From: an uncultured Gammaproteobacteria bacterium | GTDB lineage: Bacteria; Patescibacteriota; Patescibacteriia; Magasanikbacterales; UBA922 | Reading direction: 5' to 3' | Assembly: GCA_964522405.1 (NCBI GenBank) | Contig: CAZFTR010000001.1 | Coordinates: forward strand, 4,602 to 68,601 | Length of the DNA: 64,000 nucleotides | Shown here: positions 10,401-49,228 of the stretch, one piece after another | Numbering within the stretch: position 1 is the first letter of the stretch | Layout of the letters: the number at the start of each line of letters is the position of its first letter | The notes under the pieces: generated by a model | What the model was told of the DNA's origin: nothing | Database searches by the model: none | The model's input: only the letters and a program-made list of their open reading frames with translations | Position numbers and translations under genes: made by a program

Positions 10401-10401
10401 A
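1414..10401 (+). CDS. giant (2995 aa) cell-surface protein with an N-terminal signal/TM, six or more LamG (concanavalin-A-like, Laminin_G_3) repeats, several fibronectin-III-like domains, Pro-rich and Thr-rich linkers, and a C-terminal TM anchor
   Basis: Recurrent LamG motifs (L[KR][LI]Y[IV]NG..D) run with ALSFDGVDD...W.K and DE..IY.RALS..EI blocks at about aa 255, 520, 740, 975, 1380 and 1625. FN3-like SWTD/VGWQD segments lie at about aa 1850-2300. Linkers are PATPPPALPPPPEPPKPG and TATTTPATTTTTPEDGEGGG. The C-terminal hydrophobic helix IIVTILIVLLILMV is followed by RRLFKGIRKMKK. Confidence 0.8.
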   Translation: MNRLEKKTKPFLHISAFLTAAAFVVAFAFLFSDLHAVTKTWDFDSASDYTFDADYLKITDGKAGFVTFDQTDDDNTQTGFGGGTHTGTGWSASNNSLGIVTGTVALYWKFDEVSGNLVTDSSGSGMNGGLNQSDGFDNNWVLGKFANAFEFASSTSESFVAPTFNTKPNSELYTSDIFSVALWVRLDELVDNNFIDLFHRISGGISRLYMRVQPTHKISWSIWDGSPNWSGLVGNTTIEIDNWYYVVGTYDGENLKLYINGELDGSMANSNGIEQFDGNRIAGIATITGGPYGATQHLDGIVDDVQYYSRALSTEEILHNYINRPPAQQGIFESRVMNNYAASYWWSLAWNPKAPYGKELPDNPRMGLLMHFDEASGSTDFIDSSSGGNLISCSGTSCPLTGIASQLSTGAYFDGVDDKLVFSNSPTYNADEIKDFSFSTWVKSDLSQNGFHVIASGGLSDNSGWSVYTYKTASGAENVYFEIARPGYTTQYKIRGVSTQDDRFVFIGGTYDASTDELIIYKNGSGIVGYDSAGALTQAPGDVFEIGQRALHSGFSDFPFRGVIDEFTIYNKKLSDQEMRNLFVAQRQGAAMLDDNAPDRALVLHMNEAGGSSAFKDKSSYNNSASCSGNTCPVAGVEGQVGTALKFDGVDDYVEISGSSLEISDKLTMGLWVKPETSGSHKQLISKNPAPGSVSSYYLSLTALKPCVWLGQNMVGWKCSISAVPLNEWSYVAAVFDGRSLRIYINGVLDKTYSGLSGVIPTNPGTSVWLGNRPDLSGYMYKGGMDEITIFSKALSAEKILNIYNEQKIGKLGLENIASDRSLETAQYSASGANMTDNELLLHFNEASYSGTVDEVVDKSGNENHGLVVGGGDTVAYGKLNRAASFDGVDDSVTIADNNTLDTKESDLSIEAWIKPENVSQAGYIVTKRLNESPWTQWGVGIFDGSTNYGSGKKLVCTFGLTSGSGSYFHDVVTVDDILDGDWHHVVCRVDYGNNIEVFVDGVKVDTNIIRDQSWTSLENDEPITVGSGNGAFYYKGLIDEVAVYSRALLDEEVLDRYKRGAVRVKYQIRSCNDSACDGETYMGPDGTASTYYSELQNSFYSTPAIGLASVPNNTYFQYKAIFETENASYLPEISSVTAGPDHQSIGTFELMPAKASAVSFANIDSFTDQDVGLITGINDPVPYYQITNQGDQEMPSWYFWNGSSWAQTFNPDDSNTESEINTNISQFSTDIGTGKFLWKAFLKVIEAAKSLKLFQVEVDYNAPPTANVLETKGSAVYFDGENDYITIPDSEGFNFAGKTASVAFWFKVPNIEIINHMIDRQEGGYPGAGWYIGIRPNGRLHINHRATDDTINLYSTALVNDNQWHFGVITIDSADNLATMYVDGVLNSTDTFEGLIDKNDSFFIGTTGGGNSSYYFKGSVDEIAFYNYSLTQEEIDLYYNSGNGRRGLASDNGLISGWNFDEGAGDTAKDYGINANNGELYNGATWVPGKISETTNMYGPYPYFSSIFNDTKDSYKSALSFDGGGGYVELGKKLDEENITVLAWIKLDEHNYFNYITSNSRDCCAKYDGDELKVNEGGRLSGRIWNNDPAISDWNLVNAKLVSNQVLALDTWYQVAFTYDGSTMALYVNGELDNTKASTLGIGQPSSFNRTIGAMAMSPHNYNFRGDLDEVSIYDRALTAEEIATHYNGGNGRYGLATDSGLIGGWHFYEGAGNAVQDYSPYGNHGTIKNSLEWTTGVVNDHDYANKARIQVSTDPNFENITHWDSGVEGTTLPNFVVASERSKDIKYGSLGNGPIIDSFSMADGDITYYWRIKYWDHHGAEGIWSATSSFTMLDAPVAPGSVSAARVSDNEFTVGWQDLSTTEDKFVLERDYTLGAGGFMGWQKLTDLAPNITNYTDSSTEVDSKYKYRVKAVNQAGESIYTEDPIEHFTSPKAPTSVSSTYDGENAFTVSFTDTSAISNIHDVERCDDQICDNNIYMAVSGSPVSTSTFQDAGLATNARYRWRVRASLDPTSELTSEYAYSNYEFSKPLAPSNFASEFVSDNQINLSWTDDVQYESGFTIYVSEDGSEYTPITIGNSTTTVSQNTTNYSYADSSTNHSYSFKAKSYIDATASNSELFSDDSDMTEVIYTSPVAPTMLAAVPLNSSNIQWNFTDNSNYEFGYKLFTDGGGEILNSENANLGSIVESGLSPNTEYSRYVTTYNNSGSASSAVTSTYTISATPSNGRSIFTSQTAITVAWDANGNPDGTEYYIVNSNTGANSGWVTKQEFEFSDFKCGNSYTFEIKSRNALSLESNNHSLSIKTDNCYGGGSPATPPPALPPPPEPPKPGDFSLVINEGELITNNLTVVLAIDGGEDAIMMAISEDEGFFDTSQIPYSEAYAFPLSEENGTKVVYIKFFTEDGTESPVISSEIILDTEAPEIIDLEIEDEFEFDQNVIVKGTSEAGANIIPTLNSSQKTAIEIDQDGNWEIDFGILDSGEYILELVTRDGAGNEGDTYLVAFVVNEEPIEEESQPPSGTATTTPATTTTTPEDGEGGGLPDLIDEVTDVIEDVQDAVDETYEDIKEIVKEIIPLPGPQTGGESIIPTVTTQSGSELLGDGLLSFGSIGLPKTFTNLVTSFPTLEKTFRDFGVRNIADLHRLQGVTLALPTIDELVPADSLAKSALVLDTLEGYTIDDLRDAAEKLPTDVVFFELNNGKIALAPVVNGASFSGEGPTFRTIPNQAVSMIIRPSEPVETITSQVALRELRTRQVAEAQKKTTIQSVIDAFGETVSAVQVNEVSAAEIKDQDLESTPQDEKGRFIVDQVDFEDSNDDGVYVADINTPEVFGSFDIITDVDYSTQKKDNIITNTMLIDPEGYVFHQTISGEVRLANAKVSLYHFSEESSEFELWDAEKYGQVNPQITDDSGTYAFLVPEGQYYISALASTYKPYQSRGFTVQSSGRGVHINIGLQKYFDVEQFLNIDYIIVTILIVLLILMVRRLFKGIRKMKKYDDYN

Positions 10402-19329: not shown

Positions 19330-19441
19330 ATTGTAAATGCTTGTCTCGCCCAAAGGATGGGATCCCGTCCAGTGAAAATTGGCGGGAAAAGGCTTAAAAA
19401 GCCTGAGAGATGACAGCGCTGTTATCCATAGTCTCCATTGT

Positions 19442-19520
19442 CGCCCATTCCACGTTCGCCGACAAGGGACTAAGAACAGGCGGCGCGCGAGCACCAGCCA
19501 GGCGCGTGTTGATTTACCAG
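19442..19520. repeat. GC-rich 79-nt perfect direct repeat, copy 1
   Basis: Sequence cgcccattccacgttcgccgacaagggactaagaacaggcggcgcgcgagcaccagccaggcgcgtgttgatttaccag is identical to 19875-19953. It is about 60% GC in an AT-rich context. Confidence 0.9.
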
Positions 19521-20209
19521 CCACCACCTTTGTTGTCTCTGCGGTTGGCGATGTGACCTGACAACGCCAGAGGCCAGACGATCCAGGCGATGAGAGCCGG
19601 GAAGCTCAGAACTTCCTCCCTCGGCATGGGGTTCCGCCTCGACTTTTCCATGCCCAGGTCTTTGGCGATGTAGATCAGGGCGAAAATGCCCAAGAACAGG
19701 TATCCGGCCAGGATACTGAGAGCAATCAAATCACTGGTGCTCAAAACCTTTCCTCCTTTCGCGGTTTTGCAATGTTGATTATAACAGTAAATAATTTTTT
19801 TTTCTATGGTTGGTTTCCAAATAAAAACCCTCCTTTTTAAGGGGGTAATAATGGTTAAAATAGTTCCCTTTCGCCGCCCATTCCACGTTCGCCGACAAGG
19901 GACTAAGAACAGGCGGCGCGCGAGCACCAGCCAGGCGCGTGTTGATTTACCAGTCTCCTTTTTTTTCTTCTTTTCGTCTCTGATCTCGATCAGGTAGCCG
20001 GCCAACATGAAGGGGCCTGCCATCAGCCCGAAGAGCCAGATCATGACACCGAATTTACTGGTGTCGGTGGGATTTCTTTCTTCTTCGCCCTTGCCGTGGT
20101 CACCGGTGACGTACAAGAGGGCGCCGAAGCTGAGGATGGCGTAGCCCCCGACCAGGCTGAGAATCATCAGGGCAGTGCTCAAAGTTCTCTCCTTGTTGCG
20201 ATTTTGCAA
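19514..20209 (-). CDS. GC-rich tandem pair of paralogous small two-TM membrane protein ORFs (A ~19955-20194, B ~19514-19754), fused in one frame through an A8 tract
   Basis: The halves LSTALMILSLVGGYAILSFGALLYVTG... and LSTSDLIALSILAGYLFLGIFALIYIA... are clearly homologous. Each is preceded by a conserved leader, atcaaYattgcaaaaYcgc, then AAGGAG, then TTG. Half B stops at the TAA inside the 79-nt repeat (cTGGTAAatc). Half A is out of frame by one base within an A8 run (19959-19966) and reads through. Confidence 0.4.
   Translation of the reverse strand: MQNRNKERTLSTALMILSLVGGYAILSFGALLYVTGDHGKGEEERNPTDTSKFGVMIWLFGLMAGPFMLAGYLIEIRDEKKKKKETGKSTRAWLVLARRLFLVPCRRTWNGRRKGTILTIITPLKRRVFIWKPTIEKKIIYCYNQHCKTAKGGKVLSTSDLIALSILAGYLFLGIFALIYIAKDLGMEKSRRNPMPREEVLSFPALIAWIVWPLALSGHIANRRDNKGGGW
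19875..19953. repeat. GC-rich 79-nt perfect direct repeat, copy 2
   Basis: Exact 79/79 match to 19442-19520. It is followed on the minus strand by a terminator-like hairpin, ccccctTAAAAaggaggg plus a T-run (19822-19846). Confidence 0.9.
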
Positions 20210-22456: not shown

Positions 22457-22591
22457 AATATATTGTTTATATTTAACTAGAAAAAATACTGTGATTATAT
22501 TGTAGCATAGAGATAGTTTGTGATAAAGGGAGTTTATGATTAGGTGAAATTGTGTTATAGTTTAACCAATATCGACTACATGGGGAGATGT

Positions 22592-22756
22592 ATGGTTTCC
22601 AGGTTGGGAAAGGAGCCGGTGGTGCTGGTCAAGGTTGTCTGGGGCGGGCTCAGCCCGGAGGATATTGCGGTTTACCGTCAAATCGCTAGGGACACAGTGG
22701 AGCGTTCCAAGCAAAATCGCTGCCATGGATGCGGCAGACCAAAGAAGGGGGAATGA
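22592..22756 (+). CDS. GC-rich small ORF (54 aa), possibly the product of a ~260-nt GC-rich transcript; could instead be a non-coding RNA
   Basis: A TG-extended -10 (tgtTATAGT) near 22545-22556, SD GGGGAGA 5 nt before ATG 22592, and an intrinsic terminator at 22795-22822. The protein MVSRLGKEPVVLVKVVWGGLSPEDIAVYRQIARDTVERSKQNRCHGCGRPKKGE has no recognised family. Confidence 0.35.
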   Translation: MVSRLGKEPVVLVKVVWGGLSPEDIAVYRQIARDTVERSKQNRCHGCGRPKKGE

Positions 22757-22794
22757 TGGGGGGCGCCACTCCATCTCGGATTGGCAAACTCGAA

Positions 22795-22822
22795 AAAACA
22801 TGAGAGAATCATGTTTTTTTGA
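22795..22822 (+). terminator. intrinsic terminator
   Basis: aaaaaaCATGAgagaaTCATGttttttt. Confidence 0.65.
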
Positions 22823-22843
22823 TATTAAATTTATCAAAACAAA

Positions 22844-22868
22844 AAAACAGCTTTTGCTGTTTTTCAGT
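22844..22868. terminator. bidirectional intrinsic terminator, likely ending the convergent minus-strand GC-rich gene
   Basis: aaaaaaacAGCttttGCTgttttt. Confidence 0.55.
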
Positions 22869-22959
22869 ACTTCCTAAAAATTCAAAAAAAATACTAAGGA
22901 AGGGGTGGGGCGGAAGGAATCACGGCGGGAGTCGCTGCGATCATCGCCCCGAGGGGGGA

Positions 22960-23631
22960 CTAGGCATCGATGGCCTCGAAGATCTGGGATCTGGGGCGGT
23001 CGGGGAGGGCGCGGGGCATGGCGTCGAGGGTCGTCATGTCCGCGTACCAGGCCTGCATGTAGCCGGTGGGACGGTGTTGGTCAGCGCTCGGCGCCGAGGC
23101 CTGGGCTCGGCTCTGGAGCAGGACGGCATTGAGCCGTTCCGGGTCGTTCTGGAACATCCAGAGCAGGAACTTCATCTGAAGCGCCTCCTCCTGGCTCATC
23201 TGGGGGATCTGGCCCGGACTGACCTTGGAGATCCGCTGACCCATGGTACGGAACAGGCCGTCGGCAGCCCTCAGCGCGGCCAGACGGTGCATCATGTTCT
23301 GGTTGTCCGGTTCCACCACTTGACTGCTCTCTTCGAGCGAAGCCCGCACCTTTTCCGGAATCTCTTCGCCGGCGGTTTCGTTGCCAGTGAAGATCAGGCG
23401 GTAGCGTGTCCGTTGACCCACGGGGATCTCGAGAATCAGTGCCAGCGGCGGGTTTTGGGCGATGGTGTACTCCAGGTAACACTCGATCATGTTTTCCGGA
23501 TCCTTGACTCCGGAGTCAGGGGGCTTGCTGTCTTCGTACGACTTCATGGCATTGTGCCAGTGCCAGAGAGTCAAGAAGAAGCCCAGGATCAGGACTGTGA
23601 TGAGGAGAGTCAGGAGGGTGAGAGAGTCCAT
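22960..23631 (-). CDS. GC-rich hypothetical protein with an N-terminal TM anchor (224 aa)
   Basis: Start MDSLTLLTLLITVLILGFFLTLW is preceded by AAGGAGG. Amino-acid composition is protein-like, whereas the overlapping plus-strand ORFs are G/R/L-rich antisense artefacts. About 58% GC. Confidence 0.55.
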   Translation of the reverse strand: MDSLTLLTLLITVLILGFFLTLWHWHNAMKSYEDSKPPDSGVKDPENMIECYLEYTIAQNPPLALILEIPVGQRTRYRLIFTGNETAGEEIPEKVRASLEESSQVVEPDNQNMMHRLAALRAADGLFRTMGQRISKVSPGQIPQMSQEEALQMKFLLWMFQNDPERLNAVLLQSRAQASAPSADQHRPTGYMQAWYADMTTLDAMPRALPDRPRSQIFEAIDA

Positions 23632-23759
23632 ATCGTGCCTCCTTGAGGCTTCCGGTTCTAGTCTGTTCAGTATTGTTGTCTTTTTTTGATAAAAAGTCAA
23701 GTCTGGAGTTTAGATTGACAAAACAACAATTTTGTCCTAATATGGGTATACAATTATAA

Positions 23760-23935
23760 AAGCGCAATACTCGCTATCAACGAGGATTCTGAGTCTCAGA
23801 AGCGCTGAAAGAAGAAAAACTTATATAAAGTTTAGTAGAATTTTCCGGGTAAGCCCGTAATAGCAGAAATTAAGAGCCACTTTGGAAGTGAGATGGTACC
23901 GCCCGATATTGGGTTCTCATGTGAGTGGTTTTTTA
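23760..23935 (+). promoter_or_regulatory. candidate T-box riboswitch leader of ileS
   Basis: A ~180-nt structured leader contains GAGAUGGUACCGCCCG, which resembles the T-box core (UGGUACCGC, 23895-23903), then a hairpin plus U-run near 23905-23934. ileS is the classic T-box-regulated gene. An Ile codon candidate (ATC, 23776-23778) sits in a loop context. Confidence 0.5.
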
Positions 23936-24083: not shown

Positions 24084-27053
24084 ATGCCTTACGAATCAAA
24101 TAAACATGAACTTGAAATAAAAAAGTTCTGGGACAACAACAAAATTTTTGAAAAATCTATAAATGAGCGTCCGGAAGATCAGCCCTATGTTTTTTATGAT
24201 GGTCCACCATTTGCAACCGGCTTGCCACATTATGGACATATAGTTGCCAGTTTGATGAAAGATGTTGTTCCCAGATATTGGACTATGCAAGGAAAGCGGG
24301 TTGAGCGTCTTTGGGGTTGGGATTGTCATGGTTTGCCGATTGAAAATATTGTTGAAAAAGAAATTGGATCAAAAAGTAAACAAGATATTGAAGAAATGGG
24401 AGTTGAAAAATTCAATGAGTCCTGTCGCTCAAAAGTTTTACATTATATAGATGAATGGAAAAGGACTATTCAAAGACTTGGACGCTGGGTTGATATGGAC
24501 AATGCCTACAAAACCATGGACAAAGATTATATGGAGTCAGTTTGGTGGGTTTTCAAAGAGCTTTGGGACAATGGTTTTGTTTATAAAGGATATAAATCAA
24601 TGCATGTTTGTCCACGTTGTGAGACAACACTTTCTCAGCAAGAAGTAAGTGAAGGTTACAAAGACATAAAAGATCTTTCCGCAACTGTAAAGTTTAAAAT
24701 TACCTCTACAATTTCAGATATTCATCAAGACCTGGGTGTGTGTAATGATCTCTTTGTTCTAGCTTGGACAACTACCCCTTGGACACTTCCTGGAAATGCC
24801 CTTTTGGCAGTTGGTGAGGATATTGAATATACAGTTGTTAAATTTGAAGGCTCTTGTTATGTGGTTGCCAAAGAAAGATTAATTGAAGTTTTTGATGAAA
24901 GAGAATTTGAAGTTGTTCAGCAATTAAAAGGAAAAGACCTGTTAGGTTTGGAATATGAGCCATTGTTTCCATATTATACTGATACAGAAAATGCTTTTAA
25001 GGTTGTGGCAGGAGATTTTGTAAGCACAGAAGAAGGAACAGGCGTGGTGCATATAGCTCCGGCTTTTGGTGAGGATGATTATCAAACAGGAAAAAAAGAA
25101 AAAACCGGCTGGGTCCAGCATGTTTCAATGAATGGAAAATTTAAGCCGGAAGTTGCAGATTTTGCAGGTCAGCAAGTTAAGCCAATAGAAGATCCTCAAA
25201 AAACAGATATAGAAATAATTAAATGGCTTGCTCACAATGAAAAGTTATTTTCAAAGAAAAAATATCTACATAGTTATCCGCATTGTTGGAGATGTGACAC
25301 CCCTCTAATAAATTACGCAACAGATTCCTGGTTCGTAAATGTAGAAAAATTAAAAAAGGACGCGCTTAAACATGCCAAAGAAATAAATTGGTCTCCAGAA
25401 CATATGAAAGAGGGGCGTTTTGGGAAGTGGCTAGAAGGAGCACGAGATTGGTCAATTTCTCGCCAGCGTTTTTGGGCATCAGTAATTCCAATTTGGGAAT
25501 GTGATAAGACAGGTGAATTTCATGTTATCGGTTCTGTAGAAGAACTTGAGAAATTAACCGGAGAAAAAATAGAAGACCTACATAAGCATACAGTAGATAA
25601 ACTAACTTGGAAAAATCAAAAAACAGGAGGAACTATGAAACGAATTCCAGATGTTCTTGATTGTTGGTTTGAAGCAGGTTCAATGCCTTACGCCCAAGTT
25701 CATTATCCATTTGCCAATCAAGAAAAATTTGAAGCAAGTTTTCCAGCAGAATTTATTGCCGAAGGACAAGATCAAACACGAGCCTGGTTTTATTATCTGC
25801 ATATTATTGCAACAGGTGTAAAACAAAAACATGCATTTAACAATGTGGTGGTAAATGGAATAGTTCTAGCAGAAGACGGAAAGAAGATGAGTAAGAAATT
25901 ACAAAATTATCCAGACCCAATGGTTGTGCTGGAGAAATACGGAGCAGATGCGCTTAGATACTACTTGGTGAGTTCACCGGTGATGCAAGCAGAAACTTTG
26001 AATTTTTCAGAAGAAGGTGTTCGAGAAGTTTTTAATAAGGTTGTCAATACACTTTGGAATGTAGGTAGTTTTTATGAGATGTTTGCAGATGAAAATTCAA
26101 AGTTCGATTTAGAATTGGCAAAGAATTCAAAAAATGTTTTGGATAAATGGATACTTGCCAAACTACATAGATTGCTTGAAGAAGTTACAAAAGAAATGAA
26201 TGAATACAGACTTAATGATGCATCTCGCCCAATTTTAGATTTTATATTAGATCTTTCACAGTGGTATGTGCGCAGATCAAGAGATAGATTTAAAGGTGAT
26301 GATGAAGAAGATAAAAAAGCAGCACTTGCTACGCTCCATGAAGTTCTTTTAACTCTTTCAAAAATCATGGCACCGTTTACTCCGTTTATTGCAGAGAAGA
26401 TTTATAAAGAAGTTGGTGGTGAGAAAGAATCTGTTCATTTGGATATGTGGCCAGAGGTGGATCAAAATATTTTGCTAGCAAACACGAATCTCTTAGTGGA
26501 TATGGAATCAGTCAGAGAAGTAGTTAAGCTTGGAAATTCTCTTAGAAAAGAAAACTCATTGAAAGTTAGACAGCCGCTTGCAAGTTTAAAAGCAGTTGCT
26601 ACTCTCTCAGGAGATAAAGATTATCTTGAGCAATATCAAAAAATTATTTCAGAAGAATTAAATATTAAGAAAGTTGAGTTAAGAAATTTACCTGGAAATA
26701 AAGAAATGGAAGAGATGAGAAGTTTGGCAAATGATAAAATTAAAGTTGCCGAAGATCAAAGATCTATCGTAGTCCTTAACACAGAAATAACCCCACAACT
26801 CGCCAAAGAAGGACTTCTCCGCGAAACAATCCGCGCCATAAATCAAATCAGAAAACAACAAGGCTTGATAATGCATGACCAAGTTCTTGTAGAATTTTCA
26901 ACAGAAGATAAAGTATTAAATGAAATCTTTACAAAAGCAGAATTTGCAGAAGAATTAAAAAAACAAACACTCACAAGTGAAATCAAATCAGGTGGAACTG
27001 AAGAAATAGAAATAGATAAAAGAAAAATTAAGATAATTGTGAAAAAAGCGTAA
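24084..27053 (+). CDS. ileS: isoleucine--tRNA ligase
   Basis: HIGH motif PHYGHI, KMSKS motif KMSKKL, WSISRQRFWAS and the Zn-binding CPRCE segment. 989 aa. Confidence 0.9.
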   Translation: MPYESNKHELEIKKFWDNNKIFEKSINERPEDQPYVFYDGPPFATGLPHYGHIVASLMKDVVPRYWTMQGKRVERLWGWDCHGLPIENIVEKEIGSKSKQDIEEMGVEKFNESCRSKVLHYIDEWKRTIQRLGRWVDMDNAYKTMDKDYMESVWWVFKELWDNGFVYKGYKSMHVCPRCETTLSQQEVSEGYKDIKDLSATVKFKITSTISDIHQDLGVCNDLFVLAWTTTPWTLPGNALLAVGEDIEYTVVKFEGSCYVVAKERLIEVFDEREFEVVQQLKGKDLLGLEYEPLFPYYTDTENAFKVVAGDFVSTEEGTGVVHIAPAFGEDDYQTGKKEKTGWVQHVSMNGKFKPEVADFAGQQVKPIEDPQKTDIEIIKWLAHNEKLFSKKKYLHSYPHCWRCDTPLINYATDSWFVNVEKLKKDALKHAKEINWSPEHMKEGRFGKWLEGARDWSISRQRFWASVIPIWECDKTGEFHVIGSVEELEKLTGEKIEDLHKHTVDKLTWKNQKTGGTMKRIPDVLDCWFEAGSMPYAQVHYPFANQEKFEASFPAEFIAEGQDQTRAWFYYLHIIATGVKQKHAFNNVVVNGIVLAEDGKKMSKKLQNYPDPMVVLEKYGADALRYYLVSSPVMQAETLNFSEEGVREVFNKVVNTLWNVGSFYEMFADENSKFDLELAKNSKNVLDKWILAKLHRLLEEVTKEMNEYRLNDASRPILDFILDLSQWYVRRSRDRFKGDDEEDKKAALATLHEVLLTLSKIMAPFTPFIAEKIYKEVGGEKESVHLDMWPEVDQNILLANTNLLVDMESVREVVKLGNSLRKENSLKVRQPLASLKAVATLSGDKDYLEQYQKIISEELNIKKVELRNLPGNKEMEEMRSLANDKIKVAEDQRSIVVLNTEITPQLAKEGLLRETIRAINQIRKQQGLIMHDQVLVEFSTEDKVLNEIFTKAEFAEELKKQTLTSEIKSGGTEEIEIDKRKIKIIVKKA

Positions 27054-27176: not shown

Positions 27177-27679
27177 AATGGTGGTTTTTATGATCGCGCC
27201 ACACCGGAATTCACAATAGTTTATAAAATCCGGTGTGGCGGCGCGATCAAGTGTCTGTTCACGAGGTTGTTGTCCCTCGTTTACCAGAATCAATCCACCA
27301 CCTCTCCCTTATTTACTACTAACGCTCTTCTGGCGCTTTCGTTTTATTCTCGATAGGGAGCTGTTCTAATCGCGTTGCACGATCAGTCTAACGGGTACAG
27401 CCATGAACGGCTTCACGAACAGGCTGTTCGTATCGATCCAAACTGTTCCTGCATTGCACAGAAAACGACTGGTTTCGCGCTTTTTTGTGTGCGCGTGCTT
27501 CAGTCTCAGAATGATCGGAGTGGGTTCTTGCCGGGGTAGGTGCTACAGTCAATATATCTTGCCTTGGAATGAAGTCGAACCGGGCTTCAATCTTTGGTTT
27601 GATACTCGTGTAGAGCCTTATTCAGTCGTTCGGGTGACTGTCACACGTAGTAGGATCAGATCCTCTACGGTGCTGGTAG

Positions 27680-28141
27680 CTATCGCTTGCCGTACTTTTT
27701 ACGCAGGCTGCGACGCTCGATTTCGCGCTCCAGGAGATCCACCGCTTTTTTGGCTTCCTTGAGCCACCAGTGGCGGATGTCATGGATGTTGCCTTCTTTC
27801 AGGCACTTCCAGAGGAGCCAGAGCCAGTACTGGGTACCGTCTTCTTCGCCGTAGATCAGCGTTTCGAACGGTTCGGGGAGGTTGAAGCCCCCGTCCTTGT
27901 GCTCGGTCATCTCGAATCCCTTGTCGCCATTCTCAACTGCTGCGGCGACCAGGTCGACGAGTCTGTCCTCTCTGCGGTAGAGCTGTCTCTCCTCGCGCAT
28001 GACAGCGAGGAAATCAGTCCAGTCCTCCATGTACGCGGGGACGTAACTGAGGAACTGCTCACTCATCTCACCCACCCAGTGCTCGTGCCTATCAGCAACG
28101 AATTCCGTGTAGGAGAGATCCAAAAACTCTCTTCTATCCAT
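27680..28141 (-). CDS. GC-rich hypothetical protein (153 aa)
   Basis: Protein-like, Trp-rich acidic sequence. SD GGAG lies 7 nt before the ATG, and the 5' leader has a GC hairpin CCCCGGC-acggg-GCCGGGG at 28162-28180. About 57% GC. Confidence 0.55.
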   Translation of the reverse strand: MDRREFLDLSYTEFVADRHEHWVGEMSEQFLSYVPAYMEDWTDFLAVMREERQLYRREDRLVDLVAAAVENGDKGFEMTEHKDGGFNLPEPFETLIYGEEDGTQYWLWLLWKCLKEGNIHDIRHWWLKEAKKAVDLLEREIERRSLRKKYGKR

Positions 28142-28569
28142 CTAACACTCCGAAGCTACTGCCCCGGCCCCGTGCCGGGGAGCTCCGAGATCTCTCTCGG
28201 TTATATCTAGCAAATTTTGCAAAATATAATCGAGAGAGATTTTTGAGTTTTAAATGTCAGCTTTCAAATTATACAAACGAATTATATAATTTGGAACTGT
28301 CCCGAGGCTGAAGCTTCGGGTGAGTTTCTGGCGCTGTTGCGACCTGAGTCGCGAGGCGCAGTTGGTCTTGCTCTTAGAGTGTTGGGGGAGCTGATTGACC
28401 CTACCCCTTCTACTGATTTCGAACTTGTCGCACAGCCGGTTTTCTGGCTCTCTACCTACTCAATTGCCAACTCGTGGCATCCACATCTAGATTTCCCCGA
28501 AAGTTCAGAGAAACTCTCGGTCCACAGGAGCGGAGTTAAATCCGCATCTTCATCGATTAGAAATCGATG

Positions 28570-28872
28570 CTACTTGCTTCCCTCCTGGTGTTTCACCAGA
28601 CGTCGATGGACTTTCTCATCGGCGTAGTCCAGCTCGAGTCGGAGCATCGCGTCCTCGAAGGAGCTCAGCGCTTTCTCGACGCTGTCCGGCGTCGTCGTCT
28701 CGGTGGTGGTGATCGACTGGGAGATCGGATCGGCCCATGCATGGAGGATGCGCGTGGCACGTTTTCCGTACTTGTGGCGCGCGCCTTCGGGCATGTTGCG
28801 CATGACAGAGGTCAGTCGGTTCTCGAGCGCCTCGAGACGGACCTGGAAAAGATATTGCTCGCTTTTCTTCAT
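28570..28872 (-). CDS. GC-rich hypothetical protein (~100 aa; start ATG 28872 chosen by analogy to its paralogous leader, alternative GTG at 28893)
   Basis: A leader paralogous to the 153-aa gene: hairpin CCCTGGt-aaagg-GCCAGGG, then gcagtRgcttYggag, then 7-9 nt, then ATG. Confidence 0.45.
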   Translation of the reverse strand: MKKSEQYLFQVRLEALENRLTSVMRNMPEGARHKYGKRATRILHAWADPISQSITTTETTTPDSVEKALSSFEDAMLRLELDYADEKVHRRLVKHQEGSK

Positions 28873-29111
28873 CTTTCTTTTCTCCAAAGCCACTGCCCTG
28901 GCCCTTTACCAGGGAGCCCAAGAGATTTCCCTTGGTTAAGCGAAAAAAGCAGATAACCGCTTAAATTAGGCAAAAGCCTAAATTTTCGCTAAATCAAGGG
29001 AAATTTCAGTGAATTGTCAATAACGGCTAACAATTAATTATAGCAGGTTTTGACGGTTTTGTCAATGAGTGGTAAAATTAGATAACGACTTCAAAAATTA
29101 ACTAAAAAATT

Positions 29112-44601: not shown

Positions 44602-45750
44602 ATGGTTCGAAAAAAGAATCCCAGACAAATTTCATCTAATTATGGTCAACCTGTGCGTTTTTATAAGCTGGTTGCCTTGAGTTTTTTATTTATTACCATT
44701 GTTTTGTTGGGCCTTATTGTTTTTATGTCTGCAAAGCGAGCAAATATAACTATTACTACCAGGCCTGAGCCGGTTGACAGTAATGTTAGTATAAATGTCG
44801 GTGAAAATGCCGTAGCACCGAGCATTGCCGGTACTGTTACTAGCTCTTTGGTAGTGTTGGAAAAGAAATTTGAACCAAAAGGAGTTAGACAAGAGGTTAG
44901 TACTGCGACCGGACATGTAACTTTGATAAATGATCGCTCTGTAGATCAGCCTCTAGTGGCTACTACTCGATTATTAACACCAGAAGGAGTATTATTTAGA
45001 CTTGAAAATCGAGTTTTAATCCCAGCAAAAAGTTCAATCCAGGCAGAAGTTTATGCAGATAAAGAGGGCGAGATAAGTAATATTGAGGCAACTGATTTTA
45101 CAATTCCAGGTTTGAGTAAATCTCTACAAAAATTAGTTTATGCGAAAAGTGATCAGCCAATTTCTGGAGGAGTTCGTTATGTGGGAATTTTGAGTAAAAA
45201 AGATCTTCAGCAGGCAGAGCAAGCTATGCTTGACGATGTCAAAGCATTGGCAAAAACAACTTTGGAAGAAAATAGCCAAGGTCAGAGATTTGTATTTTCA
45301 TTGGTACAAAATACTGTTGAGTCTGATACAGAAATTGGAGTAGAAACTGATGGTTTTAATTTATCTGCAAAAGCAACTGTAGTTGGGGTATATTATGATA
45401 TTGAGGAATTAAAAAAATTAGCTGAAAGTGTCTTAGCAAAACAAGCAGTTGGTTCAAGTGAATTTGTTCAGGTTGGAGAAGGAGAACCAACAGCAATTCT
45501 AGAAGATTATGATTTAGAAGATGAAACTGCAGTTTTGGCAGCCACTTTTAATGGGCTTGTCACTATTGATGCTAACAGCAAAGAGCTGGATAAATTAATG
45601 TTTTATGGAAAAACAGAGGATGAAGTAAGAAGATATGTTTTATCACTTGATCATGTTCATGGTGTAGATGTTAGTTTTCGTCCACTTTGGAATAGTACTG
45701 TTCCTCATGTTGCAGATCATGTAAATGTGGTGGTTAGGCAAGTTGAATAG
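44602..45750 (+). CDS. hypothetical protein with an N-terminal TM anchor; possibly pilus-associated given its position after pilB
   Basis: TM segment LVALSFLFITIVLLGLIVFM. No recognised family. Confidence 0.5.
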   Translation: MVRKKNPRQISSNYGQPVRFYKLVALSFLFITIVLLGLIVFMSAKRANITITTRPEPVDSNVSINVGENAVAPSIAGTVTSSLVVLEKKFEPKGVRQEVSTATGHVTLINDRSVDQPLVATTRLLTPEGVLFRLENRVLIPAKSSIQAEVYADKEGEISNIEATDFTIPGLSKSLQKLVYAKSDQPISGGVRYVGILSKKDLQQAEQAMLDDVKALAKTTLEENSQGQRFVFSLVQNTVESDTEIGVETDGFNLSAKATVVGVYYDIEELKKLAESVLAKQAVGSSEFVQVGEGEPTAILEDYDLEDETAVLAATFNGLVTIDANSKELDKLMFYGKTEDEVRRYVLSLDHVHGVDVSFRPLWNSTVPHVADHVNVVVRQVE

Positions 45751-45797
45751 TTTGATTTGTTTGACAACGATAATTTATCATGATAATTTAAAGATGT

Positions 45798-45851
45798 ATG
45801 AGAAATAGAAGATTTACAACCACTACATTGAATTTTCTTTTTTCGAGGTAG
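45798..45851 (+). CDS. candidate Thr-codon-rich leader peptide 1 (MRNRRFTTTTLNFLFSR)
   Basis: 17-codon mini-ORF with four consecutive Thr codons (ACA ACC ACT ACA). It is followed by a terminator at 45883-45905 (ACCCTCgaaaGAGGGTtttttt). There is no SD, so the call is speculative. Confidence 0.3.
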   Translation: MRNRRFTTTTLNFLFSR

Positions 45852-45909
45852 TGGATTTTTGCTAAATAATCTGATAACCATGACCCTCGAAAGAGGGTTT
45901 TTTATTTTT

Positions 45910-45966
45910 ATGAATTTGTTTATTTTAACAACTACTACAACTACTACTAACTCTCCACCGGTTTGA
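45910..45966 (+). CDS. candidate Thr-codon-rich leader peptide 2 (MNLFILTTTTTTTNSPPV)
   Basis: 18-codon mini-ORF with seven consecutive Thr codons. It is followed by a terminator at 45990-46013 (CACCCCaaaccaGGGGTGtttttt). There is no SD. Confidence 0.3.
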   Translation: MNLFILTTTTTTTNSPPV

Positions 45967-46093
45967 GGTAGTTTTTGTAAAGCAAAAAACACCCCAAACC
46001 AGGGGTGTTTTTTAATGAGTGAGAAAGTTGTAAACAGATTTGAAATTGAGATTTGTTTCTAGCTTTTTGACAAAAAAAGGAGGTGGCTAGATT

Positions 46094-47086
46094 ATGAGAT
46101 TTGGTCTTGAGGCTGAATTTCTGCTCGAAAACATCAAGGTCGATCAAGCGTTGGAGCTTGGGATCCCTGGTGTGACGAGAGAGTTCTTTGACATGATGGT
46201 GGAAGTCGTGACTGGCATCCATCAAACAAGGGGAGAAGCAGTAGAGGAGCTTCGCGATCGTACCATTGCCTTGCAGAGGGGTGGGGCAGTGCTTCATCCA
46301 TTTGCTTCGCATGCCTTTGGTGATCCCTGGGACAGGGTGGGGTTTGAAAGTGTGACCGGAGTAAGCGACTATTACCGTTGGGTGTACTACGTAGCTTGCC
46401 AGAATCCGCTTGAGCTTCACCACGTTGGGATCCACATCAACGCTTCTCAGGCTGGGTTGGTGGGTGACGCACTGATTCATGCCACTAACTGGTTGCGCTG
46501 CTTGAACTTCTTGTTCATTTTGCTCGGTTCCAACTCTCCGCTTCAGCGAGGTTTGCCTTCAGGATGTCTCTCCAGGCGTTCTTACTTCTATCCAAACCGG
46601 TATGACGTACCGCTTTGGTGTGGAGAGGCTAGTTTCAGAGCCTGGGTGCGGCAGGAGGAGGCTCTCGGCAAGATCTATCCTGGAAAAGCGCGTTGCTGGA
46701 TGTCGGTTTGCCCTCGGCTCGAGGGCGATAAGATCGATTCTGAGCTCGAGAGGATTGAGCTCAGATCGCTCGACAGTGGTGCCAACCTGTCGTGGGAGGT
46801 GCTGGAGGGATGTTGTCAGCTCCTCGAGCGCATTGTGGTCTACTCAGGCCATGGTTCAGAGCTCCCTGTTGACATTGATCAAATCCAGTTCAATGACAAG
46901 GCTGTAGCTCGTCTTGGCCGGCAAGCAACGCTCTTGTTTGAGGGTCGGAGCCGTCAAGCAGAGGAATTGGCCAGGTATTGGTGTCAGGGAATTGAGTCGC
47001 TTGAACAAGTTCTGGACTACGGTTCACAGGCTGAAAAAATCCTGAACCAGATCCAGGATTCTGGGGTCCAAACCCAAAGGAGGTAG
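46094..47086 (+). CDS. GC-rich carboxylate-amine ligase, glutamate-cysteine ligase family 2 (GCS2/YbdK-like)
   Basis: The N-terminal MRFGLEAEFLL block matches the GCS2-family ExE start. 330 aa, about 58% GC against ~35% in the flanks. Strong SD AAGGAGGTG. Confidence 0.5.
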   Translation: MRFGLEAEFLLENIKVDQALELGIPGVTREFFDMMVEVVTGIHQTRGEAVEELRDRTIALQRGGAVLHPFASHAFGDPWDRVGFESVTGVSDYYRWVYYVACQNPLELHHVGIHINASQAGLVGDALIHATNWLRCLNFLFILLGSNSPLQRGLPSGCLSRRSYFYPNRYDVPLWCGEASFRAWVRQEEALGKIYPGKARCWMSVCPRLEGDKIDSELERIELRSLDSGANLSWEVLEGCCQLLERIVVYSGHGSELPVDIDQIQFNDKAVARLGRQATLLFEGRSRQAEELARYWCQGIESLEQVLDYGSQAEKILNQIQDSGVQTQRR

Positions 47087-47199
47087 AGGAGGGGCGGGAG
47101 TGTGAAGGCGCTCCCGGTTCCCAAAATTATTTTATATATTTAAAGTAATTTAGGAATTTAAAAGTTGACAAAATATTTGAGATAATGTAATCTCAATAT

Positions 47200-47410
47200 T
47201 AGACGCATTTGTACAAAAGCCAGCCCAGTGGTAGCTTCCTAGACAGGAATAGATGATAGAACTGAGAGTCATCTTCTAGAGAAAGCCACATGGTACCACT
47301 TTTGGAGCGTCAAGACAAAATATAAAAGTTAAACTTTCAGGTGGAACCGTCTTTAATCTAAACTTTAAGGACCCTGATTAGCTAAGTTTTTGGGCTGTCA
47401 GGGTTTTTTT
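47200..47410 (+). promoter_or_regulatory. candidate T-box riboswitch leader of thrS
   Basis: Promoter TTGACA(47165-47170)-17-TAATCT. The ~215-nt leader has a hairpin AGATGA-tagaACUgagag-TCATCT with the Thr codon ACU at 47261-47263, a T-box-like CAUGGUACCACUUUUGGAGCG (47303-47323) with a UGGA bulge candidate, and a terminator CCCTGAttagctaagtttttgggctgTCAGGG plus T7 (47372-47410) just before the thrS start. Confidence 0.5.
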
Positions 47411-47425
47411 ATTTAAAATAATTAT

Positions 47426-49228
47426 ATGTCAGAAAAAGATATTTTAGTTGATTCAATTGCTAAAGAGCAAAATGGGTCAAAGAAAGAAAATTCAATTGTT
47501 AGATCAAGACATTCTTTGTCACATCTTATGACAATGGCGGTTTTGGATATGTATCCTGATACACCACTTGGCATTGGTCCGACAATTGAAAAAGGTTTTT
47601 ATCAGGATTATGATTTTGCAGAACCTGTGGCTGAAAATATTTTGCCAAAATTAGAAAAAAGAATCAAAAAATATCTTAAGCAAAAGATAGATTTTGTACA
47701 AAGCAATGGAAATTTTGAAGATGCGCTTGAGTTTTACAAAGATGATCCCTACAAGACTGAAATAATCAATGAGTTAAAAGAAAAAGGTGAAAAGCAAGTA
47801 AGTTTTTATGATTCTGATTGGTTCCATAATCTTTGTGGTGGTCCTCATGTTGGAAATACTTCTGAAATAAATCCAGATGCTTTTAAACTTGTCAAAATTG
47901 CCGGAGCTTACTGGAGAGGTGATGAAAAAAATAAAATGTTGACTAGGATTTATGGAGTTGCTTTTGAGACCAAAGAAGAACTTGACGCTTATCTTGAAAT
48001 GATGGAAGAAGCCAAGAAAAGAGATCATAGAAAGCTTGGAAAAGAACTGGATCTTTTTACTTTTTCCGAGCTTGTTGGGCCTGGTCTTCCGCTGTGGACC
48101 CCCAAAGGAACAGCACTACGAAATACATTAGATGATTTTGTTTGGCAGCTTCGTCAAGAAAGAGGTTATCAAAAAGTTACAATACCTCATATTACAAAAA
48201 AAGAATTATATGAAAAAAGTGGACATTGGCAGAAATTTGCTGATCAATTATTTCATATCAAAACCAGAGAAGGTCATGAATTTGCCATGAAGCCAATGAA
48301 CTGCCCGCATCATACACAGATTTATAATCATTTATCCAGGAGTTATCGCGACTTGCCGCAGAGATATGCAGAAACTACAACATGTTATCGAGATGAACAA
48401 ACCGGCGAACTTCATGGAATTTCTAGAACTAGAGCCTTTAGCCAAGACGATGCCCATGTTTTTTGTAGAACTTCACAAGTAAAGGAAGAATTTCTCAAGA
48501 TTTGGGATATTATTGATATTTTCTACAAAGCTACTGGTTTTGAGAAACTCGAAGTTCGCTTATCACTTCATGATCCGGATAATTTTGATAAATATTTAGG
48601 AACTCCAGAACTTTGGAAAGATGCAGAAAATCAATTAAGAGAGTTGGCCGAGGAACGGGGAGTGGAGTATAGAGAAGATCTTGGAGAAGCGGCATTTTAT
48701 GGACCAAAAATAGATTTTATTGCCAAAGATTCCATAGGAAGAGAGTGGCAAGTAGCTACAATACAGCTCGATATTAATATGCCAGAGAGATTTGATCTCA
48801 CTTGTATAAATGAAAAAGGAGAATCTGAAAGAATAGTTATGATTCACGCAGCAATTATGGGTTCTATTGAAAGATTTTTTTCAATATTCATAGAGCATCA
48901 TGCCGGCGCATTTCCAATTTGGCTTTCTCCAGCTCAGGTTCATTTTGTCCCGGTTTCAAATGAAAATCATCTCCAGGGTGTGAAGAAGTTCGCAGAAGAA
49001 CTAAAAGACTTGGGAATTAGGGTAAGTGTTGACAGTGCTGATGAAACAGTTGGAAAGAAAATTAGAAAGGCCTCAGGACAGAAAATCCCTTATGTTGTAG
49101 TTGTTGGTGATAAAGAGTTGGGTGGTGGAGATTGGACAGTAAGAGTTCGAGGGCAAGAAGAACAGATAGCAATATCCAAAAAAGAATTTATTGATAAAGT
49201 CTTAAAAGAAATTGAAGAAAAGAAATAA
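47426..49228 (+). CDS. thrS: threonine--tRNA ligase
   Basis: Class II motifs, FAMKPMNCPHH zinc site, and RTRAFSQDDAHVFC. 600 aa. Confidence 0.9.
   Translation: MSEKDILVDSIAKEQNGSKKENSIVRSRHSLSHLMTMAVLDMYPDTPLGIGPTIEKGFYQDYDFAEPVAENILPKLEKRIKKYLKQKIDFVQSNGNFEDALEFYKDDPYKTEIINELKEKGEKQVSFYDSDWFHNLCGGPHVGNTSEINPDAFKLVKIAGAYWRGDEKNKMLTRIYGVAFETKEELDAYLEMMEEAKKRDHRKLGKELDLFTFSELVGPGLPLWTPKGTALRNTLDDFVWQLRQERGYQKVTIPHITKKELYEKSGHWQKFADQLFHIKTREGHEFAMKPMNCPHHTQIYNHLSRSYRDLPQRYAETTTCYRDEQTGELHGISRTRAFSQDDAHVFCRTSQVKEEFLKIWDIIDIFYKATGFEKLEVRLSLHDPDNFDKYLGTPELWKDAENQLRELAEERGVEYREDLGEAAFYGPKIDFIAKDSIGREWQVATIQLDINMPERFDLTCINEKGESERIVMIHAAIMGSIERFFSIFIEHHAGAFPIWLSPAQVHFVPVSNENHLQGVKKFAEELKDLGIRVSVDSADETVGKKIRKASGQKIPYVVVVGDKELGGGDWTVRVRGQEEQIAISKKEFIDKVLKEIEEKK

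Follow-up and report, generated by a model that had tools for sequence, protein, structure and literature searches.

Tandem threonine-codon leader units with the layout of ribosome-mediated attenuators upstream of a rare ligase gene in a Patescibacteria genome

The window analysed here is a stretch of 64,000 nucleotides (nt) of contig CAZFTR010000001.1 (GenBank assembly GCA_964522405.1) from an uncultured bacterium that GTDB places in the Magasanikbacterales (Patescibacteriota). Between a 382-amino-acid (aa) open reading frame (ORF; 44602-45750) and a GC-rich ORF (46094-47086) that encodes a carboxylate-amine ligase-like protein lie two consecutive units, each consisting of a short ORF with a run of threonine (Thr) codons and a predicted intrinsic terminator (Table 1). 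An earlier note on this DNA had read these units as candidate ribosome-mediated Thr attenuators upstream of the ligase gene and of thrS, the gene for threonyl-tRNA synthetase (ThrRS). It had placed both mini-ORFs and both terminators correctly and had the peptide of the second ORF right. In the whole window three mini-ORFs (at most 45 codons) contain at least four consecutive Thr codons, and two of these three are leader ORFs 1 and 2.

Table 1. Window positions of the features at the leader, ligase and thrS locus.
Feature	Position	Strand	Remarks
Promoter-like site	TTGACA 45761-45766, 17 nt, TAATTT 45784-45789	+	ends 8 nt before ATG 45798
Candidate leader ORF 1, MRNRRFTTTTLNFLFSR	45798..45851	+	ATG 45798, stop TAG 45849-45851
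Region 1, unit 1: Thr codons ACA ACC ACT ACA	45816..45827	+	from sequence
Region 2, unit 1, UUUUCGAGGUAGUGGA, including stop codon	45840..45855	+	alternative partners: Thr codons or terminator 5' arm
Predicted intrinsic terminator 1 (regions 3 and 4), GACCCTCGAAAGAGGGTT: GACCCUC GAAA GAGGGUU + U-tract	45882..45905	+	
Candidate leader ORF 2, MNLFILTTTTTTTNSPPV	45910..45966	+	ATG 45910, stop TGA 45964-45966
Region 1, unit 2: ACA ACT ACT ACA ACT ACT ACT (seven Thr codons)	45928..45948	+	
Region 2, unit 2, CGGUUUGAGGUAGUUUUUGUAA, including stop codon	45959..45980	+	
Predicted intrinsic terminator 2, AAAAAACACCCC/GGGGTGTTTTTT: AAAAAACACCCC AAACCA GGGGUGUUUUUU	45984..46013	+	
Strong Shine-Dalgarno (SD) sequence of the ligase gene, AGGAGGTG	46078..46085	+	unusual in a genome without SD sequences
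Putatively regulated gene, 330-aa GCS2/YbdK-fold carboxylate-amine ligase-like protein	46094..47086	+	Pfam GCS2, fold
thrS promoter, T-box-like leader and terminator	47166..47411	+	apart from the attenuators; thrS at 47426-49228

For the comparison of units we defined region 1 as the Thr run, region 2 as the sequence that begins 13 nt past the final Thr codon and extends to the terminator, region 3 as the terminator 5' arm with its loop, and region 4 as the terminator 3' arm. A repeat search returned the segment that the earlier note had seen in each unit, TTCGAGGTAGT (45842-45852) and TTTGAGGTAGT (45962-45972), of the common form TTYGAGGTAGT; by itself, the GAGGTAGT 11-mer was not significant (2 matches versus 1.9 expected in the whole window, with at most one mismatch). 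The complementarity between the Thr runs and the GTAGT(GG) segments, likewise proposed before, re-emerged from an inverted-repeat search. In unit 1 region 1 pairs with 45843-45855 at -11.8 kcal/mol, and in unit 2 the region 1:2 pairing amounts to -11.6 kcal/mol. The search further paired the stop-codon region of each unit with the 5' arm of its terminator, namely TTTCGAGG (45841-48) with CCTCGAAA (45885-92) in unit 1, and 45955-45977 with 45983-46005 in unit 2. These region 2:3 pairings were worth -11.0 kcal/mol in unit 1 (UUUCGAGG/CCUCGAAA) and -16.7 kcal/mol in unit 2 (with 45984-46001). The minimum free energy (MFE) fold of the region contains both hairpins and both terminators (z=-4.6 versus shuffles), and when the terminator 3' arm was left out of the transcript the predicted structure became the antiterminator. 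Another assembly of this organism (L086) has an identical leader sequence, so the ACTACT tract gives no sign of being a variable microsatellite, a possibility that the earlier note had raised against itself.

To see how widely this arrangement is kept, we collected every ligase homologue that could be placed on a contig, several of these being short metagenomic contigs. A scan of metagenome contigs with the ligase protein alignment yielded two loci, one a duplicate of L083, which is itself the same as L084. Upstream of the ligase homologue, a Thr-run mini-ORF followed by a terminator was found in all 12 informative loci, that is in the window, L081, L082, L083/L084, L088, L089, L090, L091 and L094, and in partial form in L087, L092 and L093, whose contigs start inside the unit. 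The leaders read MRNVRFTTTTTDTIFIG and MNFYQLTTTTTTASPP in L081 and MKNHVYNATVTTTHLM and MNFLFFQSTTTPLLLFFLTGTVP in L082 (homologues of ORF 1 and ORF 2, respectively), MKNVCTTTTTLIPA in L090 (a homologue of ORF 1), MMNNSVQQLQTTTTTQPEC in L083, MTYCGRYTTTTLLTRLPS in L089, MIYRQTTTTTTTGQPSDSR in L091, MKSVFKTTTTKLP in L094 and MTTLFLSG in L088. The genes around the ligase differ from locus to locus, with SMC and S16 in L081, the DnaG/sigma-70 side in L082, and Translin and a cation ATPase in L083. Conservation of the Thr runs in relatives, which the earlier note had proposed as a check, therefore extends to all 12 informative ligase homologues in otherwise unrelated contexts. At positions 180-330 of L094, between the Thr attenuator and the ligase, there is also a second long hairpin with a terminator-like element (AAAGAGTCTTCC...GGAAGACTCTTTTT), here unaccompanied by any Thr-run ORF; this structure could represent either another unit that has decayed or some other kind of control element. 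In the window, an in-frame ATG at 45880, in the 5' arm of terminator 1, would lengthen leader ORF 2 to MTLERGFFIFMNLFILTTTTTTTNSPPV (45880-45966, + strand); this ATG is probably incidental, since TTG replaces it in L081 and L082.

Pairing energies were then compared over 13 units, comprising 11 ligase leaders and two leaders found before thrS (L017 and L047, see below). The mean energy of cognate region 2:3 pairings was -15.45 kcal/mol, versus -9.04 kcal/mol for non-cognate combinations (permutation p=2e-5), and the z-score against shuffled region 2 was -10.2. For region 1:2 the cognate mean was -11.35 versus -9.93 kcal/mol for non-cognate combinations (p=0.019), with z=-5.5 against shuffles; in a previous version of the comparison, with 11 units, this cognate advantage was only marginal (p=0.07). 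Compensatory region 2/region 3 pairs are seen in unit 1 of the window (given above), L091 (GGAUUCGAGG/CCUCGAAUCC), the two units of L081 (UUGGUUGAGUUUG/CAAGCUCAACCAA and CUUGAGGC/GCCUCAAG) and L047 (CUGGAGGGUAUU/AAUACCCGCCAG). Both the antiterminator and the anti-antiterminator pairings thus covary across units. The pairing of region 2 with the terminator arm, which the earlier note had not spelled out, is the strongest evidence that we have. The stop codon lies inside or adjoins region 2 in 12 of the 13 units; the exception is the second unit of L082, whose stop comes about 16 nt beyond the pairing segment. Runs of 3-7 consecutive Thr codons are present in 12 of the 13 units and runs of 4-7 in 11 (three codons in the second unit of L082 and two in L088).

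A translating ribosome was simulated by masking 28 nt around the A site. In transcripts that stopped short of the 3' arm, masking the Thr codons kept the 5' arm of the terminator sequestered over half or more of its length in all 13 units, and this arm was free in nearly all of them when the mask was at the stop codon. In full-length transcripts a stalled ribosome flipped the MFE structure to the antiterminator in unit 1 of the window (with the ribosome at the first Thr codon), both units of L081, the second unit of L082 and L083. Folding of the terminator and antiterminator alternatives, another check that had been suggested beforehand, hence gave the switch in truncated and masked folds generally and in five units at full length.

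The start of transcription and translation can be judged from the first units. In six of nine of these, a perfect TTGACA box and a 17-nt spacer precede a TAnnnT box that ends 7-10 nt before the ATG, and in L091 an imperfect -35 box (TTGCAT) is followed by 12 nt to the ATG. The promoter that the earlier note had offered as a guess, TTGACA-17-TAATTT, is therefore conserved in position. Because the promoters end 7-12 nt before the first ATG, a leaderless mRNA is predicted, and translation of ORF 1 probably starts in a leaderless or near-leaderless manner. In second units the ATG comes immediately after the U-tract that ends the first terminator, and its surroundings are A/U-rich. It had been remarked previously that neither mini-ORF has an SD sequence; this is so, although it does not weaken the case as was then thought, because the native genes are essentially without SD sequences and ORF 1 is probably leaderless. 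An SD-like motif was found before about none of 24 native large ORFs of the window, their upstream regions being A/T-rich, and the host genes of L081-L083 are likewise essentially devoid of SD sequences.

The anatomy, conservation, covariation and fold switching computed here lead us to infer tandem leader-peptide attenuators, dependent on ribosomes and sensing charged tRNA-Thr, that in all probability control the ligase gene. Transcription would start at the TTGACA-17-TAATTT promoter, at about the ATG of ORF 1. When Thr-tRNA is plentiful, the ribosome would reach the stop codon and mask region 2, so that the 3:4 terminator forms and RNA polymerase stops. When Thr-tRNA is scarce, the ribosome would stall on the four Thr codons of unit 1 or the seven of unit 2, leaving region 2 free to pair with the terminator 5' arm as an antiterminator, and the polymerase would read through. 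If there were no translation at all, region 1:2 pairing would lead to termination, as expected for textbook units. Two such units in series would multiply the on/off ratio. In this respect the proposal of ribosome-mediated Thr attenuation in the earlier note has gained support from conservation, covariation and fold switching alike.

Several observations sit less comfortably with this mechanism. ORF 2 has neither an SD sequence nor a promoter of its own, so ribosomes would have to initiate on an unstructured, A/U-rich leader, as is plausible where genes lack SD sequences. At equilibrium, full-length transcripts of unit 2 of the window, the first unit of L082 and L090 still fold into the terminator when a ribosome is stalled, and the model therefore needs kinetic, co-transcriptional folding. 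Several units form the antiterminator without any ribosome in truncated folds, unlike the default-off state of textbook attenuators. The cognate advantage of region 1:2 pairing is modest because all Thr runs resemble one another, and the leader of L088 has only two Thr codons. The 13 units share descent, so they do not amount to 13 independent observations. Finally, the ligase has no known link to threonine, and the regulatory logic is in that sense not closed.

The ligase gene is itself unusual. Its product matches Pfam GCS2 (PF04107) weakly (25.4 bits versus a cut-off of 21) and reaches 23 bits with the NCBIfam YbdK model TIGR02050, for which the cut-off is 176; a sequence search of the PDB found YbdK at E=0.029 only. 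An AlphaFold2 (AF2) model of the protein, with a predicted local distance difference test (pLDDT) score of 92.8, matched YbdK-type structures in Foldseek (template modelling (TM) score 0.73, E=4e-13), and also glutamate-cysteine ligases and PafA/Dop. The family is small, with 14 homologous proteins at 45-53% identity among 5.8 billion, and 10 representatives at E<1e-30 among 1.84 billion (about ten clusters at 50% identity), after which there is a sharp drop; one member is annotated from a metagenome-assembled genome (MAG) of Magasanikbacteria. In the window the gene has a GC content of 53% versus 37% in the background, and in 10 of 10 loci the ligase gene lies 5-16 GC points above its surroundings. 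A strong GGAGG-type SD sequence precedes it in 9 of 10 loci, the exception being the shortest contig (L085), whereas none precedes host genes or, indeed, the peptidase gene of the same operon. The Thr content of the protein is 2.4% in the window and 2.2-5.3% across the family, versus 5.8% in the background. A gene for a PepT-like M20 peptidase (TIGR01883, 169-176 bits, below cut-off) lies directly upstream of the ligase gene in three loci, and in the two of these with a visible leader, L081 and L090, the leader precedes the peptidase gene, which is followed by the ligase gene. The idea that the ligase avoids ANN codons, whose tRNAs need threonine-derived t6A37, was considered as well (ANN 15-23% versus 27-33% in the host). 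It was not supported and was dropped, because AGR makes up 12 of the 27 Arg codons in the window gene and the effect is inseparable from high GC.

While the ligase gene stands as the presumptive target, the suggestion that thrS is controlled by the same units did not survive, because thrS is served by a promoter, T-box-like leader and terminator of its own. The leader has a promoter-like site of the form TTGACA-17-TAATCT and an intrinsic terminator, and the internal loop of its long stem I reads UACCA, the Thr codon ACC + A, which would serve as specifier. The part from 47190 to 47411 carries AGGUGGAACCG, and the motif AGGTGGAACCG corresponds to a UGGA bulge suited to a tRNA with the ending UCCA. 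Upstream of thrS in 15 of 80 relatives from the candidate phyla radiation (CPR) we found the GGTGGAACCG motif together with an ACC-A loop (once ACT-A), many of these leaders having a very short stem I; that of L075 gave a partial match to the Rfam T-box family RF00230 (24 bits, E=0.2). No match to RF00230 was obtained in 45650-47500, even at E<=10, and the attenuator units are without the GGUGGNACC motif and do not belong to the T-box class. A let-7-like match in L077, examined for resemblance to UGAGGUAGU, proved to be an unrelated hairpin. Elsewhere in the window, positions 23748-23921 (+ strand) give a sub-threshold Rfam T-box match (40.5 bits versus a gathering score of 93, E=2.7e-6) before the ORF 24084-27053, which encodes a class I aminoacyl-tRNA synthetase (tRNA-synt_1, Anticodon_1, DUF5915; IleRS-like). 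In this CPR genome T-boxes have diverged so far that standard annotation misses them.

About 20 relatives have a homologue of the 382-aa gene upstream of thrS in the same orientation, its end mostly about 100-400 nt from thrS and in a few cases up to about 3 kb away, and the ligase is present in none of the 80 thrS loci. Since the 382-aa gene is followed by thrS without the ligase in these relatives, the two units and the ligase gene are an insertion at this site. The closest ThrRS relatives come from MAGs of Magasanikbacteria, Uhrbacteria and Peribacteria, with at most 68% identity. A scan of the collected loci for mini-ORFs with at least four Thr codons and a terminator returned, beyond the ligase leaders, two cases, both directly before thrS. 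At 2974-3108 of L017, TTGACA-17-TATAGT is followed after 9 nt by MSDITTTTTTSR, and the Thr leader at 3724-3862 of L047 (Roizmanbacteria) reads MKLNFVTTTTNLS; both have a leaderless-type promoter, an antiterminator and a terminator. It thus appears from sequence that thrS is under Thr leader peptides in some relatives and under a T-box-like leader instead in this genome.

Could the units be merely two consecutive terminators, or small RNAs, behind the upstream gene (44602-45750), with Thr runs that are incidental ACT/ACA-rich sequence? They do come immediately after the stop codon of the 382-aa ORF, terminator 2 has a bidirectional form, and the GAGGTAGT 11-mer taken alone carries no significance. 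We nevertheless give this explanation hardly any credence, and the comparative sequence data already contradict it: relatives have the upstream gene and then thrS directly, without units, whereas the units accompany the ligase in settings that are otherwise unrelated, some of them divergent intergenic regions where they have a promoter of their own, and an in-frame ATG, Thr run and stop codon are kept in all of them. It also seems very unlikely that the mini-ORFs encode functional small peptides, for instance precursors of modified peptides processed by the ligase or peptidase, with the hairpins as leaky terminators that set the ratio of precursor to enzyme and no sensing of Thr. Lengths and C-termini of the peptides vary freely, that of L088 having 8 aa, and only the Thr run is kept across all units; beyond it, the conserved residues are 2-6 N-terminal ones. 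These N-termini (MRN.RF and MNF/L...) would suit a precursor, as would the constant presence of an ATP-dependent ligase-fold enzyme next to it, the peptidase in three loci, and the action of members of the same fold, such as the PafA/Dop among the Foldseek matches, on peptide or protein carboxylates. A precursor gene would, however, need neither the covariation of the RNA after the stop codon with the Thr codons nor that with the terminator arm, the same design precedes thrS in L017 and L047 with no ligase nearby, and the number of units per locus varies from 1 to 2.

A different question is what genuine attenuators would report. Stalling on a leader ORF is a known route to the induction of resistance genes. 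Sensing of antibiotics through uORFs is the topic of PMC12121999. The units might accordingly report a general stress on translation, or a ThrRS blocked for instance by an antibiotic or threonine antimetabolite, and not the nutritional supply of Thr; the ligase, with or without the peptidase, would then act in resistance or detoxification. That the regulated genes are not genes of Thr biosynthesis speaks for this, as does the cassette itself, which is sporadic, GC-rich, SD-bearing and found in varied contexts, as is typical of accessory or horizontally moved genes. We regard this as unlikely, given that Thr codons specifically are used in all units (4-7 in 11 of the 13), which points to tRNA-Thr charging rather than to an arrest motif specific to a drug. 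Since starvation for Thr and inhibition of ThrRS would look alike to such units, sequence does not separate a stress reading from one of Thr supply. The ligase gene looks like a horizontally mobile accessory gene, a view that its persistent GC offset does not fit simply. More tentatively, and as a possibility that we would not call probable, the attenuator may mark a mobile CPR cassette made up of the GC-rich, SD-bearing, rare YbdK-fold ligase with or without the PepT-like peptidase, whose function is tied to tRNA-Thr charging. It might salvage or spare Thr by a new reaction in organisms that lack amino-acid synthesis, or else protect the cell from a threonine antimetabolite or an inhibitor of ThrRS, and it may come from a GC-richer lineage, perhaps that of a host.

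The window comes from an AT-rich CPR/Patescibacteria genome (37% GC), and the locus has genes for a PilB-type ATPase, FtsH and S1 as neighbours. Sharp GC-rich islands of 50-66% GC occur at 19400-20200, 22570-23700 and 27200-28950, besides 46094-47130. The ORFs on both strands of the islands other than that of the ligase are without Pfam matches or Thr leaders, and a permissive Rfam scan of the islands returned nothing save the T-box at 23748-23921. An ORF at 22960-23700 (- strand) has a strong AAGGAGG SD sequence, as does the ligase gene, and 22570-22800 looks non-coding and ends in a terminator. The islands may be foreign genes or unrecognised structured RNAs. At 1414-10401 (+ strand) lies a giant ORF of 2995 aa with six Laminin_G_3/ConA-like lectin repeats, a sialidase N-terminal-like domain and fn3; its product probably serves in adhesion at the cell surface, as large proteins of episymbiotic CPR bacteria commonly do.

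Leader-peptide attenuation itself is textbook biology, and we found no description of it for CPR/Patescibacteria in the searchable literature. If the attenuators work as proposed, they would imply tight coupling of transcription and translation, leaderless initiation and sensing of tRNA charging in reduced, largely unculturable bacteria. They would also supply a precise cue, low Thr-tRNA, for a nearly orphan ligase family, which could guide a biochemical assay. Were the mobile cassette real, its regulator would offer a direct handle on what an orphan enzyme family does, and attenuation by coupled transcription and translation, together with leaderless initiation, would have its first evidence in Patescibacteria. 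Within one CPR lineage a single signal would apparently be read in three ways, by Thr leaders before the ligase, by Thr leaders before thrS in relatives, and by divergent T-boxes before thrS.

Among known systems, the units resemble the E. coli thrL leader (RF00506), sharing with it a short Thr-run ORF, alternative 1:2, 2:3 and 3:4 pairings and an intrinsic terminator. In E. coli the thr leader is read through when tRNA-Thr charging is low, and the same is proposed here. At Rfam gathering thresholds there was no match in the region; a permissive scan gave weak hits for unit 2 only, a full-length one to Thr_leader at 26.2 bits (E=0.031; gathering score 55 bits) and one to Phe_leader at 30 bits (E=0.016). 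Unlike E. coli thrL, the window units have no Ile codons, lie before a GCS2-like ligase gene rather than thrABC, belong to a CPR host, start with an ORF that is predicted to be leaderless, and form two complete units in series. The window units would act like the E. coli thr leader while standing outside the Rfam Thr_leader family. The ligase is similarly removed from its nearest structural relatives, the YbdK/GCS2 ligases (PDB 1r8g and 1tt4), to which its fold corresponds but with which it shares only 14-17% identity, and its very small family, with NCBIfam scores far under the cut-offs, is set apart from them.

Arrangements in series are known from Bacillus subtilis thrZ, which has three tandem T-boxes that bind tRNA and are not translation-based. 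In the tandem attenuators of Salmonella mgtCBR, two ORFs in one leader sense different signals, Pro and ATP (PMC3641672). The window shares with both the presence of several attenuation modules in series in one leader, which would sharpen the response, and differs from both in having two homologous leader-peptide units for the same amino acid. Leaderless leader peptides have been proposed for leuL, trpL, alaL and thrL of Streptomyces lividans, upstream of aminoacyl-tRNA synthetase and amino-acid genes (PMC8079986), and leaderless poly-Cys short ORFs for mycobacteria (bioRxiv 10.1101/834739). As in these Actinobacteria, the transcript would start at the ATG of a short ORF rich in the cognate codon, followed by hairpins and a terminator, and the Thr leaders before thrS in L017 and L047 parallel the S. 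lividans pair thrL-thrS. S. lividans thrL has two Thr codons only and no clear terminator (PMC8079986), whereas the present units contain 4-7 Thr codons in a row, are followed by canonical terminators, occur in another phylum and, in the window, precede a different target. Among leader-peptide attenuators the proposed system is notable for the host clade, the tandem and leaderless layout, and the orphan target gene.

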